Source: Escherichia phage vB_EcoP_PAS59. From it: a stretch of DNA of 64,000 nucleotides. Of this stretch, positions 10,110 to 56,681 are shown piece after piece. The translations under genes were made by a program, and so were the position numbers. The notes beneath the pieces are model-generated. The model worked only from the letters and a program-made list of their open reading frames with translations. It ran no database searches and had not been told where the DNA came from. The stretch lies in sequence record OQ921332.1. The stretch is one strand, 5' to 3'. Position 1 is the first letter of the stretch; every line of letters starts with the position of its first letter.

Positions 10110-10185
10110 GCACCCTTAGCTCAATGGACAGAGCAGCGACCTTCTAAGTCGTTGGTTACAGGTTCGAATCCTGTAGGGTGCACCA
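10110..10185 (+). tRNA. tRNA-Arg (anticodon UCU), CCA encoded
   Basis: Acceptor stem GCACCCT/AGGGTGC, anticodon stem GCGAC/GTCGT, loop CTTCTAA, T-arm GGTTCGAATCC, 3' ACCA. Confidence 0.9.
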
Positions 10186-34035: not shown

Positions 34036-34353
34036 ATGATGACCGATAAGGCGAAAAGAGATTATGCACAAGAACGAAGAACTGCAATCAAACGTGGGGA
34101 GACAGGTGTTGGTAGCAAGAGCGGAGATGCTCAGCGCCACCGTGCACGTCGCATCGTTGAAAAACGCGATGGAAAAGCTGCTGTCCGAGGTAAAGATGTT
34201 GGACACAAACGATCAATCAAGTCGGGAGGTTCTAATGCGTCAAGTAACTTACGTGTTGAATCAGTCTCTCGAAATCGCTCGAACGGCGGCAAAAGTGGAG
34301 ATCGTGCTGGAAAATCAGCAGGCGGTCGCAAAGGAGCTTTAAGCTCAAGCTAA
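34036..34353 (+). CDS. Small, very basic protein with a degenerate HNH-like segment
   Basis: GKDVGHKRSIKSGGSNASSNLRVESVSRNRSNGG; own promoter motif and terminator. Confidence 0.55.
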   Translation: MMTDKAKRDYAQERRTAIKRGETGVGSKSGDAQRHRARRIVEKRDGKAAVRGKDVGHKRSIKSGGSNASSNLRVESVSRNRSNGGKSGDRAGKSAGGRKGALSSS

Positions 34354-34357
34354 TATA

Positions 34358-34388
34358 AGGCTACCCATTTCGGGTGGCCTTTTCTTTT
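34358..34388 (+). terminator. Rho-independent terminator
   Basis: AGGCTACCC-ATTTC-GGGTGGCCT followed by TTTCTTTT. Confidence 0.8.
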
Positions 34389-34409
34389 ATGTAACCTAAG
34401 GTAATAAAT

Positions 34410-34661
34410 ATGTCTAAAGTAACTTATATCACTGTAACTGATTTCCTTCCTTCTCTGAACACAACTGAGAGTTATACTTTTCCTGTAGAAAATGTTACAA
34501 GCTCTGTTGAGATGATTCAGTTTAACAAAACAACAGCTCGTACTAATGTAACCCTTCGTGGCCCTGATGGCAAGTTCATCTCCTTCCGTGATAAGGGTGT
34601 TCCTAAGCGTATTGCTAAATCTATTGAAAATCTGAAACCTTTCCCCAACTTTGGTGCATAA
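34410..34661 (+). CDS. Small protein, tandem paralog 1 (TARTNV..RG.DGKF.S.RD...NLKPFP)
   Basis: Similar to 34663..34920. Confidence 0.65.
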   Translation: MSKVTYITVTDFLPSLNTTESYTFPVENVTSSVEMIQFNKTTARTNVTLRGPDGKFISFRDKGVPKRIAKSIENLKPFPNFGA

Positions 34662-34662
34662 T

Positions 34663-34920
34663 ATGAAGATTAGCTTAATCCAAATTCGTGATCATCTCTT
34701 TAATGGTGACGCTCAGACTCATGACTACAAGGTTAATCAAGGACAACACCCTACCAATCACCTGATTGGAGGGATTTCTTTATTGCCTAATAAAACAGCA
34801 CGGACTAATGTAATGATTCGTGGTAAGGATGGTAAATTCCTCTCTTATCGTGACCCTGAAATCTGTGCTATTGTTCGTACAGCCATGAACAACCTAAAAC
34901 CATTCCCGACAGTGGAGTAA
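34663..34920 (+). CDS. Small protein, tandem paralog 2
   Basis: Internal ATG of ORF 34651..34920. Confidence 0.65.
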   Translation: MKISLIQIRDHLFNGDAQTHDYKVNQGQHPTNHLIGGISLLPNKTARTNVMIRGKDGKFLSYRDPEICAIVRTAMNNLKPFPTVE

Positions 34921-34923
34921 GTT

Positions 34924-35274
34924 ATGCCAGTACCTCAACGCCTAGAACGTCACTGCGTTCTCAAATGGGACAATATTCATGACAACCTCTCTAGTCAAGA
35001 GTTTCGTCAGTTTATTGAATTGACAGCGAAGATTAACCGAAACCGACCAGCTCGAAATTATGTGGTGGTTAGTGACAAGTATCCAGAGCTGTATGAGCAG
35101 GTGTGGGGTATGAAACTTGCACAAGTTCAGAGGAACAGTAACGAACGGAGAGAAGCTCGTAGACAGAGAGCAGAAGATATTCCAGCAGTCTTTTATGTGG
35201 ATGAAGCGGAATCCTACGAACAGTTAGATATTGTTGAGGATAACCAAGCGTTCACTGATTTAATATACCGATAA
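34924..35274 (+). CDS. Hypothetical protein
   Basis: ORF. Confidence 0.6.
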   Translation: MPVPQRLERHCVLKWDNIHDNLSSQEFRQFIELTAKINRNRPARNYVVVSDKYPELYEQVWGMKLAQVQRNSNERREARRQRAEDIPAVFYVDEAESYEQLDIVEDNQAFTDLIYR

Positions 35275-35290
35275 CTATAAGGAGTGGGTG

Positions 35291-36982
35291 ATGGATAACC
35301 CTGATAAGTTACCTTTCATAACGGAGATGACAGTCGCTGATATAATCTCAAAACAGGCGAAGCATGGAGTCAACTTCAACAGAAGAAACGCTCGGTGGTT
35401 TGTTCATCTTCTCAAAGAGATTATTGTCAATATTGATAAAGAACTGATTCCTCTCCTCCCCAAAATGCGGGTGGATGGTTCAACTTATTCTAAACCTTTT
35501 AAGAAATCAGGTGCTTTACAGAAGTGGCCTCAGCTCTATTGCGATAGGGTTGGTCTTAAAAGAGAAGATATCGGTGGGGCGTTTACTTGCGTTGAGTATG
35601 TAGATTTTGACCCATCAAAAGATGCACGTATTAAAGAAGCCTTGATGGATGAAGGTTTTATACCTCCAGAGTGGAATTATTCTAAGAAACCTTGGAATAC
35701 TTTTGAAATTCGTAAAGCTATGAAGAAGTATGGTACATACTCTGCATGGTATTCTGCTTGGATTCGAGGTAACGCTAAAGAGAAACAGACAGCAGAGATG
35801 ATAGATGCTGATATCCGAAGGTTTTTGGATAAGCACTTCCGTTATCACACTGTCAATTATATGAAAGCCTATGTCAGCGGTTTAGGTCTTAACCCTAACA
35901 GGAAGAAGCCTGTAACCTTTGATGAAATCAAAAAAGCTTTGGCTACATCAAACAAGTGGCCTACAGCCCCTACAAACCTTGAGGAGACTCTTGAAGAGGG
36001 GCTTGGGGGTGAACTAGGGGGTGTAGGAAGTTTGCTTAAGAGACGCGTTGTAGCGGCTCACAGGCTAGGTTTGATTAGCGGGCTTATCGACAAGGAACGT
36101 AAAGATGGTAAACTGTCCGCCGAAGCTAATAGCTGCGCTACTCCGACATTTCGTTTTAAACATCGCATTGTTGTTAATATTCCTTCTCGCGGTTTGTTTG
36201 GTCACGAGTGCCGCAGTCTTTTTCAATCTGACTATTCCTCAGACGATAGTCATAACCATCCTTTCATCATTACCAACCATATCCCTGATGGGTGTTACGT
36301 ACGAAAGGGTACTAACATTATCTACGAAATGGGAAAACCGGGCAAGAAAGACAAACCAATAGGTGCTTATAAATTTTATGTACCTGCTGGTCGTGAAGTC
36401 TTCTTAGGTTATGATGGCTCTGGTCTTGAGCTGAGGATGCTTGCTCATTACCTTATCAAAGAGTGTCGTGAGATGCTCGCTGAAGCAGAGCGGGAAAACA
36501 ACCCAGCTAAGAAACGGGAAGCTGAACGCGGTCTAGCTTCTGCTGTTATGTACAGAGATATTCTTTTAGAAGGGGATATTCACTCACATAACCAAAAACT
36601 TGCTGGCCTTCCTACTCGTGATAATGCTAAAACGTTTATCTACGCATTCAACTACGGAGCTGGTGACGCTAAGTTAGGAAGCATCGTAGGTGGTGGCTCT
36701 GATGAAGGGGCTGTCATGAGGGCAAGATTCTTAGCAGAGAATCCTTGTATTGCAATTCTTATTGAACGTATGACAGAGAAAGCACAAAGTGGATACATCT
36801 ACGGTGTGGATGGACGTCGTATTACAATGAGGAGGGATGCAACTGGAAAGGTTATGGTTCATAAAGCCTTAAACACCCTCTTACAGAGCGCTGGGGCGAT
36901 TGTTATGAAGTATGCAATGCTATTCCTTAATAAATGGATTGAGCGTGATGGTGTTCGTTGTGCGAAGGTTATTGACATGCAT
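35291..36982 (+). CDS. Family A DNA polymerase, polymerase domain, exon 1
   Basis: T7 gp5-like; motif A region GYDGSGLELR, motif B NAKTFIYAFNYGAG; the frame breaks inside motif C after ...VIDMH. Confidence 0.85.
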
Positions 36983-37589
36983 AAACTTCATTGTGCATGT
37001 AAAAGTTGGTGAACTCGGTGAAACCCGACCATTAAGTTGAGGGCAATACCGAGCTAAGCTATTAGGAGGTGATATGGCTAAGAAAGATCTAGTGTTAGAA
37101 ACTACTGACACAGGATGTATCATCCCTATCTCACACAAACTTAATAAAGATGGTTACTTCAGAAAGGTAATAGATGGCAAATGGGTCATGTATCACCGAT
37201 ACGTCATGGAAGAAAAGTTTGGAAAGATTCCTGATGGGTTTGAAGTAAACCATAAATGCAAGAACAGAGCTTGCTGTAACACAGACCACCTAGAGATTCT
37301 ATGGGGGAGTGCTCATGCAATAGAATCCAATACAGGTAGAAACAGAGAAAGACAGGAAGCTGCTAAAGAATTCTGGCTTAATAATGAATGTACCGGTGTT
37401 GCTCTTGCGGAAAGATTTGGTGTGAGCTTTGGAATCGCTTGTAGATGGATTCGAAAGTGGAAAGTGTAGAGACTATCCTTTGGGAGTAGGGGGTTAACAG
37501 GGAAACCCTCGAAGCGCCAACAACAGCAAATTAGCTATGCTGTTATGATATAGTCCGATACCCGAAGTAATTTGGGAATAACATAAATG
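36983..37589 (+). mobile_element. Group I intron carrying an HNH homing endonuclease, inserted in DNA polymerase motif C
   Basis: Exon 1 ends in U (..CAT); the intron ends in G (37589); R-like TAGAGACTATCC (37468-37479) and S-like ATGATATAGTCC (37545-37556) elements; joining the exons restores MH-DEGQ (HDE motif). Confidence 0.7.
37074..37469 (+). CDS. Intron-encoded HNH homing endonuclease
   Basis: EVNHKCKNRACCNTDHLE His-Me finger; C-terminal HTH-like ALAERFGVSFGIACRWIRKW; GGAGGTGA RBS. Confidence 0.8.
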   Translation: MAKKDLVLETTDTGCIIPISHKLNKDGYFRKVIDGKWVMYHRYVMEEKFGKIPDGFEVNHKCKNRACCNTDHLEILWGSAHAIESNTGRNRERQEAAKEFWLNNECTGVALAERFGVSFGIACRWIRKWKV

Positions 37590-37742
37590 GATGAAGGTCA
37601 GTTCACTGTACATCGTGATGATGTTAACAAACTTCGTACCCTCACTGAAGAGTGTGTTCGTAAAGCAGGAGAGTACCTCAAGATGGAATGTCCTCTGGCA
37701 TCTGATTGCAAAATTGGATTAAACTGGAATCACACCCACTAA
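37590..37742 (+). CDS. Family A DNA polymerase, exon 2 (C-terminus)
   Basis: DEGQFTVHRDD...KIGLNWNHTH* parallels the T7 gp5 C-terminus ...HDEIQV...GPNWAICH*. Confidence 0.75.
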   Translation, partial: DEGQFTVHRDDVNKLRTLTEECVRKAGEYLKMECPLASDCKIGLNWNHTH

Positions 37743-37759
37743 TTTGTAGTGGAGGAATA

Positions 37760-37951
37760 ATGACTAGACATGTACATGAAACATGGGCCATTACGGGAGC
37801 AAAAGATGCAATTGTTTGCTGTAATGGACATTTCTGCATCTATAACACAGAAAGAAAAGCTATTCAAGAAGCGGCTGAGTTAATGGAAGAGTTTCCTGAT
37901 AAAGATTTCTCCATTAAGAATTTAACCATCAATCTCCCGTGGAAGAGCTGA
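37760..37951 (+). CDS. Hypothetical protein
   Basis: Internal ATG of ORF 37706..37951 after GGAGGA. Confidence 0.55.
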   Translation: MTRHVHETWAITGAKDAIVCCNGHFCIYNTERKAIQEAAELMEEFPDKDFSIKNLTINLPWKS

Positions 37952-38008
37952 ATCGTATTACGAAATGAACTAGTCTTATTGATTAGTTCTTTTTAAGGAG
38001 ACAAGGAA

Positions 38009-38143
38009 GTGGAAGAAGTAAAAAGTTCTGAATGGTGCTTGAAGCAACAAAAACTCGCACAGGAAGAAGGACGTTTTGATGATGCCAAAGTGTATGGGGA
38101 GCTTTTCCGTACATGGGTTGAACGAGAGGAGAAAGATCAATGA
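38009..38143 (+). CDS. Small protein (44 aa)
   Basis: GTG start 8 nt after AAGGAG; my translation VEEVKSSEWCLKQQKLAQEEGRFDDAKVYGELFRTWVEREEKDQ. Confidence 0.4.
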   Translation: MEEVKSSEWCLKQQKLAQEEGRFDDAKVYGELFRTWVEREEKDQ

Positions 38144-38307
38144 TGGATTTGATTCGTAAACCTGCTCCAAAATGGAATGTATATTTCCAAGATGCTACAG
38201 GAAAATTTCACAACCAACTGGTTTATTCTGACGAAGAACGCGATGAAGTCGCTGCTCAGATTAAAGCAGGCGGTGGTACAGTTCTCAAAATTTATGAAAG
38301 GGAGTAA
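38140..38307 (+). CDS. Small protein (55 aa)
   Basis: ATGATG overlaps the previous stop; my translation MMDLIRKPAPKWNVYFQDATGKFHNQLVYSDEERDEVAAQIKAGGGTVLKIYERE. Confidence 0.45.
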   Translation: MMDLIRKPAPKWNVYFQDATGKFHNQLVYSDEERDEVAAQIKAGGGTVLKIYERE

Positions 38308-55883: not shown

Positions 55884-56681
55884 TTATCTGTAAATGTCAG
55901 TGCCTATGCTAGACAGACGTCTAAGCACGGCTTGTGTTTGTGGACTATATCGAGAACCTGCCTGAGTGGGAGCATGTGCTCTTTGCACAGTTTGAGAGTT
56001 AGGTTGCTTTCCTGCAAGCATAGAGGCAGCTGCCAATACAGCATTACCAAAATTCTGTTGAGGTTTTTGATCCTCTCCGGAAGATTGTTCGTCAGAGTAA
56101 AACTCTACAGGACTACCACCTAAAGCTCCAGCCTTACTTGCAGCTATCTCTGCCTGAGTTGGAGCATTAGCAGCTCCTTCTTTAGTAAGTGTGTTAGAGC
56201 CGAATTGGTCTACAGGTTGTGCTGCTTTCAAAGCACCGACAGGGTTAGCCACTTGAGATGCTGCTGTATTCTTATCAAAGAATGGTAGGAACAGTTTGTT
56301 ATTCATCGAATCCAAAGCCTGAGGCGTAAACCCCTTCTTACCAGAGAACATCTGTTTAGCACCGCCAGTCCCTTCTGAATATCCCACCAAAGCCTTCCTC
56401 ACATCGCCATCAAAAGCTTTTAGATTATCTCTTAAATATCTAGCACCCATGTCAATATTCTTTGCAGGGTCTAGCCTATCTTCAAGTTTGTACCCATAAT
56501 CTTTAGCCAACCCCTTACTAATTTGCATTAAACCTACTGGCCCTGTACCTGATGCAACAGAGGGTCTACCACTAGACTCCCTCTGGATAACTGCATGGAT
56601 AAGAGCAGCAGGAATGCCGTACTTCTTAGAAGCTTGCTGGACCATAGGATCTAGCTCAGACACTCCCATTCTTATTGTCAT
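55884..56681 (-). CDS. Virion lytic transglycosylase (SLT domain)
   Basis: IQRESSGRPSVASGTGPVGLMQI...YG (catalytic E-S ... GLMQ). Confidence 0.8.
   Translation of the reverse strand: MTIRMGVSELDPMVQQASKKYGIPAALIHAVIQRESSGRPSVASGTGPVGLMQISKGLAKDYGYKLEDRLDPAKNIDMGARYLRDNLKAFDGDVRKALVGYSEGTGGAKQMFSGKKGFTPQALDSMNNKLFLPFFDKNTAASQVANPVGALKAAQPVDQFGSNTLTKEGAANAPTQAEIAASKAGALGGSPVEFYSDEQSSGEDQKPQQNFGNAVLAAASMLAGKQPNSQTVQRAHAPTQAGSRYSPQTQAVLRRLSSIGTDIYR

Follow-up and report, generated by a model that had tools for sequence, protein, structure and literature searches.

In Escherichia phage vB_EcoP_PAS59 (record OQ921332.1), of which a stretch of 64,000 nucleotides (nt) was analyzed here (the window), the gene for the family A DNA polymerase is interrupted by 607 nt at positions 36983-37589. 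We consider it highly probable that this insert is a mobile group I intron of type IA2, hosted by a Suseptimavirus-like Escherichia coli podophage (Gordonclarkvirinae). The intron separates the His codon from the Asp codon in the catalytic HDE motif (motif C), a position that is site 881 when numbered as in E. coli Pol I. A first-pass annotation made from the letters alone had proposed that a mobile group I intron containing an HNH gene splits this motif. This proposal was upheld by an intron-less allele, by IA2 covariation, by an intact endonuclease open reading frame (ORF), by partial Rfam matches and by homologous introns at the same site. The features described below lie on the plus strand unless stated otherwise.

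The ORF list of the window gives a polymerase frame at 35288/35291-37012, which reads ...RCAKVIDMH and then continues as KLHCACKSW up to an in-frame UGA. This stop codon (37010-37012) closes the frame 10 codons inside the insert, within the 5' strand of helix P3; early in-frame stops are common among bacterial group I introns (PMC3073962). A second polymerase frame, (M)DEGQFTVHRDD...KIGLNWNHTH, extends from 37587/37590 to a stop codon ending at 37742. The Pfam DNA_pol_A profile is split 334|335 between the two, the first ORF reaching profile position 334 and the small ORF starting at position 335, and the PHROG polymerase families show the same continuation from the first ORF into the small one. 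The frame break after ...MH and its resumption as DEGQF 607 nt further on, both described in the first-pass annotation, were thereby recovered from the ORFs as well as from the protein profile.

The boundaries of the insert were determined by comparison with the intron-less relative EK010. The EK010 junction reads CATGCAT|GATGAAGG, and the window carries exactly 607 nt at this point. A shift of the boundary by a single base was excluded on both sides, since it would oppose T to G on one side and A to G on the other. The exons of EK010 and of the window share 97.7% nucleotide identity. In silico splicing of 36982 to 37590, which had been predicted to restore MHDE, indeed gave a polymerase identical to that of EK010 at 611 of 615 positions, with an exon 2 protein identical to the EK010 C terminus. 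Removal of the intron joins CAU to GAU (...GACATGCAT|GATGAAGGT...). The final base of exon 1 is U36982 and the final base of the intron is G37589, as had been pointed out before. Exon 1 (35291-36982; ORF list, Pfam DNA_pol_A and phrog_17) ends with ...KVIDMH and the codon CAU, its start codon having been chosen by comparison with the EK010 coding sequence (CDS). Exon 2 (37590-37742; Pfam DNA_pol_A positions 335-380) encodes DEGQF...NWNHTH and the stop codon.

We then modeled the intron RNA's secondary structure. Every pair of the model was checked against the sequence, and all core helices are fully paired in the window. P1 is formed over 8 base pairs (bp) by the last 8 bases of exon 1, ACAUGCAU (36975-36982), and the internal guide sequence, GUGCAUGU (36993-37000), and it places a U36982·G36993 pair at the 5' splice site. 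The loop of P1 holds the 5' strand of P10, CUUCAUU (36986-36992), which pairs with GAUGAAG, the first 7 bases of exon 2 (37590-37596). P2 is absent, and an AAAA linker follows P1 instead. P3 consists of GUUGGUG (37005-37011) and CGCCAAC (37515-37521). The P4-P5 domain (37015-37052), which Rfam matches weakly and in part (model positions 60-139), comprises P4 (37015-37019 with 37048-37052) and P5 (37024-37026 with 37041-37043, carrying a clade-specific extension), with GAAA as J4/5 and CAAU as J5/4. In P6, GCU (37053-37055) pairs with AGU (37463-37465), which lies within the last sense codons of the intron ORF, so that the helix encloses the ORF.

In the 3' part of the core, P7 pairs GACUA of the R element (37471-37475) with UAGUC of the S element (37551-37555), a pairing that was verified in the sequence and whose 3' strand lies in an Rfam partial match. 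The first-pass annotation had placed R- and S-like elements at 37468 and 37545. Both elements are present, the S-like ATGATATAGTCC beginning at 37545 as given and the R-like TAGAGACTATCC at 37467; the remaining coordinates of that annotation proved exact. P7 is followed by P7.1, UCC-UUUG-GGA (37476-37485; strands 37476-37478 and 37483-37485), a GUA linker (37486-37488) and P7.2 (37489-37510; strands 37489-37495 and 37504-37510). P8 is a hairpin, AACAGCA...UGCUGUU (37522-37544; strands 37522-37528 and 37538-37544), as is P9, CCCGAA-GUAA-UUUGGG (37561-37576; strands 37561-37566 and 37571-37576). The 3' splice site follows ωG37589, a boundary fixed by the intron-less allele. The window therefore displays the features of a group I intron, namely, the P1 U·G pair, ωG with P10, and a P3-P9 core with the P3/P7 pseudoknot. 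Introns of type IA2 are recognized by P7.1 and P7.2 linked by GUA (PMC3428280), and the two hairpins are joined by GUA in the window as well. In the same paper, this linkage and a missing P2 serve to place the ΦI, W31 and Pf-WMP3 introns in IA2.

An unconstrained minimum free energy fold of the ORF-deleted window core recovered P1, P3, P4, P5, P7.2, P8 and P9 (z = -4.7), and none of 200 shuffles was as stable. Two other placements of the P6 5' strand, as a second GCY after the 3' strand of P4 or paired with the start-codon region, were overruled by a naturally ORF-less homologue, locus L057 (IMGVR_UViG_3300045988_087812, about 2600-2830), which places GCU directly after the 3' strand of P4. 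P6 and P6a are present in L057 without an ORF; its P6a hairpin, AUAAGCA/UGCUUAU, occupies the place where the other introns carry the endonuclease gene. A second intron in the window was considered at 55942-55951 on the minus strand, where an exact S-element decamer, GATATAGTCC, occurs. This decamer lies inside an uninterrupted ORF with no Rfam signal and was rejected as a chance match. The minus-strand ORF that holds it encodes a lytic transglycosylase-like protein.

Covariation was investigated in a MAFFT alignment of 19 non-redundant ORF-deleted cores, using 46 pairs of P1, P10, P3-P7, P7.1 and P9. P7.2 and P8 were not structurally aligned by MAFFT and were therefore tested per sequence, outside the column-based count. 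As controls, the 3' partners were slid by 1-3 columns, and 500 shuffles were performed. Standard pairs were found in 96.1% of cells, compared to 31-45% with slid partners, and 21 of the 46 pairs showed changes on both sides, compared to 6-8 when slid. The covariation score was 0.359 versus 0.030-0.094 for the slid partners, and the observed values were reached in 0 of 500 shuffles. Both-side changes affected six of the seven pairs of P3. P4 and P5 were paired in 100% of cells, with compensatory changes in 5/8 pairs, and so was P9, with compensatory changes in 4/6 pairs. In P6, a U:A to C:G change was seen in 8 of the 19 sequences. Covariation thus supports P3, P4, P5, P6 and P9, with P3, P4, P5 and P9 standing out. 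The P7.2 and P8 hairpins were each found in 20 of 20 lineages, although their sequences are unrelated.

The helices that contact the exons covaried as well. The P1 U·G pair at the splice site is kept in 18 of 19 homologues, and the P1 exon positions -6 and -7 covary with the host exon, position -6 being A:U in the clade of the window and G:C in the copies of T7-like phages. P10 was paired in 94.5% of cells and showed both-side changes in two of six tested pairs, and a change of a wobble base in exon 2 is matched by an intron change. Such exon-tracking changes would not be expected unless splicing makes use of the contacts formed by P1 and P10.

Several points weigh against the intron reading. 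No variation occurs in P7 and P7.1 across the set, and these helices thus provide zero covariation information; for P7, the invariance is partly imposed by the P7 signature that was used to find the homologues. P6 has just 3 bp, the first of which is an A·C mismatch in 4 of 19 sequences, and P7.2 is shorter in the clade of the window than in the T7-like copies. The intron ends with an AUG triplet (37587-37589) that shares the frame of exon 2 and is preceded, a few bases away, by a purine-rich stretch. Splicing catalysis and DNA cleavage, for their part, are functions that we infer from family membership and from the published polymerase introns (PMC3428280, PMC3073962). Finally, no match to the Rfam model Intron_gpI (RF00028) was found in the window at the gathering score of 50 bits.

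The last point was followed in a local permissive scan. Intron_gpI then matched the 3' half of the intron (37470-37577) with 30.9 bits and an E value of 6.8e-6, and a second, weak partial match (10.9 bits, E value 6.7) covered P4-P6 (37015-37079). The Rfam search that had been suggested for this intron is thus negative at the gathering score and positive in a local match. At the gathering score, no group I match was obtained either in seven homologous loci, which include the annotated 13a intron as well as Vp_R1, RCIP0053 and L057. We used the naturally ORF-less L057, a 225-nt intron at the same site, as a stand-in for an ORF-deleted test of the Rfam model. In a local scan, it matched the full model positions 1-253 with 47.9 bits (E value 4e-11), under the cutoff of 50. 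Since this ORF-less homologue and the annotated 13a intron are also missed, the miss in the window is uninformative. It is a sensitivity limit of the cutoff and no evidence against the intron, RF00028 penalizing both the ORF of 396 nt and the insertions of P7.1/P7.2. As the full-length match of L057 shows, the model does recognize this family as group I, and its cutoff is too strict for IA2 introns with these insertions and an ORF. The notion in the first-pass annotation that a missing covariance-model match argues decisively against an intron is therefore unsound at this score, and the Rfam group I gathering cutoff systematically overlooks this ORF-bearing IA2 family. The sole window match at gathering thresholds was a tRNA-Arg with the anticodon TCT (10110-10185; 73.2 bits in Rfam), on which ARAGORN agrees.

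The intron ORF (37074-37469) encodes a protein of 131 amino acids (aa). Its earlier reading as a His-Me finger nuclease with its own ribosome binding site was confirmed by matches to Pfam HNH_3 (E value 9e-12; 44.9 bits, cutoff 24.8) and to the HNH endonuclease family phrog_6254 (E value 2.8e-41), by the homologous 13a ORF and by its catalytic residues. The nuclease motif is N-terminal, and weak helix-turn-helix (HTH) matches were obtained at the C terminus in Pfam. A comparison of 18 intron ORFs showed that H60, C62, N64, C67/C68, H72, H81 and N86 are conserved, and the core E(V/I)(D/N)H-x-C-x-NRACCN-x2-HL, together with the downstream His and Asn, is kept in these 18 intron-borne homologues and intact in the window. 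A Shine-Dalgarno sequence, AGGAGG (37064-37069), lies 4 nt upstream of the AUG. The ORF occupies the loop of P6, its last codons forming the P6 3' strand and its stop codon lying in J6/7. Since the end of the ORF overlaps the ribozyme core, the conserved C-terminal CxWIR(E/K)WK is constrained both as protein and as RNA. In four homologous loci (L027, L040, L073 and L087), the UAG stop is changed to CAG, and the frame extends by about 15 codons (...WKVQRLSE..) via P7 and P7.1 into P7.2, which results in a larger overlap of ORF and ribozyme core.

Translation of the endonuclease may be controlled by RNA structure. A hairpin, AGCUAU-(UAGGAGGUGAU)-AUGGCU (37054-37079), has the endonuclease AUG in its 3' stem strand and the Shine-Dalgarno sequence in its loop. 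The clade of the window and Vibrio phage Vp_R1 have this hairpin, the T7-like copies lack it, and it is not conserved family-wide. By analogy with other phage introns, we speculate that it may damp translation of the endonuclease. A promoter and terminator scan of 34300-38300 gave no excess over shuffles and hence no sign of an intron-internal transcription unit. Homologues of the HNH protein were found by tblastn in 190 phage records. A PDB sequence search with this protein gave no meaningful relatives, and a single-sequence AlphaFold prediction was unusable (mean predicted local distance difference test score of 44). In two homologous loci, L102 (a 419-nt intron) and L117, the endonuclease ORF is eroded or frameshifted and the ribozyme core is intact, consistent with the usual cycle, in which homing endonuclease genes decay once the intron has become fixed.

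We also investigated the distribution of the intron. A megablast search of phage genomes with 36400-37800 retrieved a group of E. coli podophages with genomes of roughly 76-78 kilobases (Gordonclarkvirinae, Suseptimavirus). In the intron-less relatives EK010, E20-1, Bas86, Bas87, NC-B and others, the match is 94-98% identical and consists of two pieces spanning 794 bp (1401 - 607). The intron is present in about 10 of 35 related records and absent from about 25. The carriers SU7, ECBP2, PE006, FH3, 1-6af/bf and pEC-N1203-2Af.1, corresponding to six unique genomes, have a 607-nt insert at the same site, with 84-92% nucleotide identity to the window intron. These carriers belong to the same genus-level group as the phage of the window, whose exons are nearer to intron-less EK010: over the last 300 nt of exon 1, 299 positions are identical to EK010, compared to 95% identity with SU7 and 77% with PE006. 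In contrast, the window intron is closest to that of PE006 (91.9%), the SU7 intron being 84.6% identical. Differences between the window and PE006 introns amount to 0/91 and 2/120 in the two ribozyme parts (2/211 in all) and to 47/396 in the ORF. As judged by this conflict between intron and exon relationships and by the presence/absence polymorphism at one site, the intron is mobile.

Signs of a transfer were also looked for in the flanking exons. Exon 2 (153 nt) differs from EK010 (locus L001, 3084-3236) at 10 positions, all synonymous, compared to 1 difference in the 300 nt upstream of the intron, and 4 of the 10 positions match SU7. These differences may represent a co-conversion tract, confined to one side of the intron, that stems from a donor not sampled so far, but this reading is suggestive only, since the 650 nt past exon 2 are likewise 2.4-2.7% divergent.

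More distant copies were retrieved by a sensitive blastn search, in which many T7-like phages, such as 13a, HZP2, JeanTinguely, Bas102-104, VSG32 and Kayfunavirus members, proved to carry inserts in their gene 5 polymerase that share 66-69% identity with that of the window. The polymerase gene of Vibrio phage Vp_R1 (Grimontviridae) also carries a homologous insert. All these inserts interrupt the polymerase at ...H | DE..., and the records of 13a, JeanTinguely and Bas102 give the polymerase CDS as a spliced join of two pieces. When viral contigs were scanned for the signature formed by the two strands of P7, more than 120 loci were obtained, of which about 35 share the position of the intron in the polymerase gene and represent many polymerase lineages. 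Between the window and 13a, the polymerases are 28% identical, whereas the HNH proteins are 57% identical (gapless, 131 aa each) and the cores about 70%. This far larger divergence of the host polymerases implies that the intron has moved from one phage family to another, using the invariant HDE codons as its site. One of the loci, L128, has a second S-like element, AATGATATAGTCT, about 860 nt upstream of its H|DE intron in the same polymerase gene, which suggests that this gene may contain two group I introns.

Among known systems, the window intron is most readily compared with the ΦI and W31 introns of T7-like phages. In the account given in PMC3428280, which cites Bonocora and Shub (2004), these introns are at Pol I site 881, are of type IA2, lack P2, have an ORF in P6/P6a and are reported to splice. 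The window intron shares site 881 (H|DE), the IA2 type with GUA-linked P7.1/P7.2, the absence of P2 and an HNH ORF with its own ribosome binding site in the P6/P6a loop; it is tied to ΦI and W31 through these reported features and through homologous annotated copies of the 13a type (13a, K1F, JeanTinguely and Bas102), with which its sequence groups it. It differs from the T7-like copies in its host, a phiEco32-like podophage of roughly 77 kilobases and not a member of the Autographiviridae, in an internal guide sequence and P10 adapted to its own exons, in an extended P5 and a shortened P7.2, and in its 3' end, which reads ...AAAUG instead of ...GAAAG. A free-standing HNH homologue, the product of gene 5.3 of T3 and φYeO3-12, is encoded just downstream of the polymerase gene and is 38-44% identical over the N-terminal 64-76%. 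It lies outside any intron and lacks the C-terminal CxWIR(E/K)WK tail of the intron-borne copies. The gene 5.3 enzyme is said, in work by Bonocora and Shub from 2009 in Curr Biol, to target the polymerase intron insertion site.

The phages SPO1, SP82, Bastille and Pf-WMP3 likewise have group I introns in their family A polymerase genes, at site 674 instead of 881, and these introns encode HNH nicking enzymes (I-HmuI, I-HmuII, I-BasI and I-PfoP3I). The SPO1, SP82 and Bastille introns interrupt the fingers subdomain at this site, and the Pf-WMP3 intron is of type IA2, without P2 and with its ORF in P6a (PMC3428280); the ORF of the SPO1 intron is located in P8 (PMC3073962, Table 1). A sensitive blastn search detected no DNA similarity between the window intron and the introns of these four phages. 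The parallel drawn earlier with T7-like phages, which share the site, thus holds, and that with SPO1-like phages is a loose one, limited to the presence of an HNH-bearing group I intron in the polymerase gene.

A different explanation of the same sequence would be a split polymerase, i.e., two polypeptides (574 aa, ...MHKLHCACKSW, and 51 aa, MDEGQF...) that assemble after translation, with the insert as a free-standing endonuclease cassette. In T4-like phages, polymerase and nrd genes are known that were split through endonuclease insertions (reference B58 of PMC3073962). The in-frame AUG right before exon 2 (37587-37589) would allow such an arrangement, and the records of SU7, ECBP2 and PE006 do annotate two "DNA polymerase" CDSs, SU7 adding a ribosome binding site for the small one; the curators of 13a, JeanTinguely and Bas102, on the other hand, annotated a spliced join. 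However, the AUG consists of ωG and the two preceding bases and is missing in most homologues (AAAG|GAU in the T7-like copies), and the sole purine-rich run upstream of it, GGGAA, is the 3' strand of P9. Moreover, the catalytic H and D/E would fall on separate chains, and a split would leave unexplained the complete group I core in 211 non-ORF nt, with its 21 compensatory pairs and exon-tracking P1 and P10. We thus regard a split polymerase as very improbable. A related option for the clade of the window is dual expression, in which unspliced or slowly spliced RNA would also yield the 51-aa C-terminal fragment, with the catalytic Asp and Glu, complementing the 574-aa protein. It is just as improbable; if true, an active polymerase would be available by a splicing-independent route.

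The insert could also be what is left of an intron in decay that has lost the ability to splice, leaving a polymerase pseudogene or a defective genome. Its Rfam score under the gathering cutoff and the visibly eroded ORF of the related 419-nt intron in L102 would agree with decay, as would a P7.2 shorter than in the T7-like relatives, but this short P7.2 is common to every clade isolate aligned (SU7, ECBP2 and the PE006-like L085). All core helices of the window are intact and fully paired, and the HNH ORF has its full length and retains the catalytic residues. The core shows 2/211 differences from PE006 despite exons that are 23% divergent, and such a near-identical core indicates strong purifying selection. 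The polymerase is, moreover, the replicative enzyme of the phage. We consider decay even less probable than a split polymerase. An intein or another in-frame insertion removed at the protein level, for which the catalytic motif of a replication protein would be a typical site, is ruled out by the in-frame stop at 37010-37012, which means that the insert is not one open frame; the RNA structure evidence also favors an intron, and the Pfam search gave HNH and HTH matches only and no Hint/intein domain.

With a group I intron as the preferred explanation, expression of the polymerase can be envisaged as follows. The gene would be transcribed with the intron included, and ribosomes translating exon 1 would halt 10 codons inside the intron, at the in-frame UGA. 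The RNA would adopt the P1-P10 core, in which an exogenous guanosine bound in P7 would attack after U36982, held by the P1 U·G pair. The freed end of exon 1 would then attack after ωG37589 while P10 keeps exon 2 in alignment, so that CAU-GAU and ...MHDEGQF... would be restored. The 131-aa HNH enzyme would be translated separately from the P6 loop via its own AGGAGG. In a mixed infection, this enzyme might nick or cut a polymerase allele that lacks the intron, close to the site of insertion, and recombinational repair could then copy the intron and some flanking exon into the recipient genome.

The spliced polymerase has 614 aa, and its residues 192-614 align with residues 318-704 of the 13a protein, the polymerase domain of a T7-like gp5. 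Pfam detected no 3'-5' exonuclease domain in the window polymerase. Proofreading, if any, may be encoded elsewhere than in the polymerase gene.

The records of the carrier genomes annotate two polymerase CDSs and a homing endonuclease but no intron. In SU7, PE006 and ECBP2, the exon 1 CDS overshoots the 5' splice site by about 21 to 30 nt, and exon 2 is a 51-aa CDS. Such 51-aa CDSs are located at 37587-37742 in the window, at 3688-3843 in L002 and at 905-1060 in both L004 and L005. A 51-aa "DNA polymerase" CDS is annotated because the last three intron bases form a chance AUG. The two-CDS annotations look like artefacts of an unrecognized intron, and the correct product for ECBP2, SU7, PE006 and others would be one spliced 614-aa polymerase.

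Literature searches for ECBP2, SU7, phiEco32-like phages and Gordonclarkvirinae found no description of this intron. The kind of element is already well known, it has been characterized at the same site in T7-like phages, and public genomes of the same genus already contain near-identical copies. What appears to be new in the searchable literature is the recognition of the intron in Gordonclarkvirinae and the view of one lineage that, in several phage families, sits at one and the same codon boundary. The main value of these results is in annotation and in comparative data, and the general understanding of group I introns is unchanged. One intron lineage occupies the H|DE boundary in T7-like Autographiviridae, in Gordonclarkvirinae and in Vibrio phage Vp_R1 (Grimontviridae), and it provides a clean example of a homing element that crosses phage families via an invariant catalytic motif.

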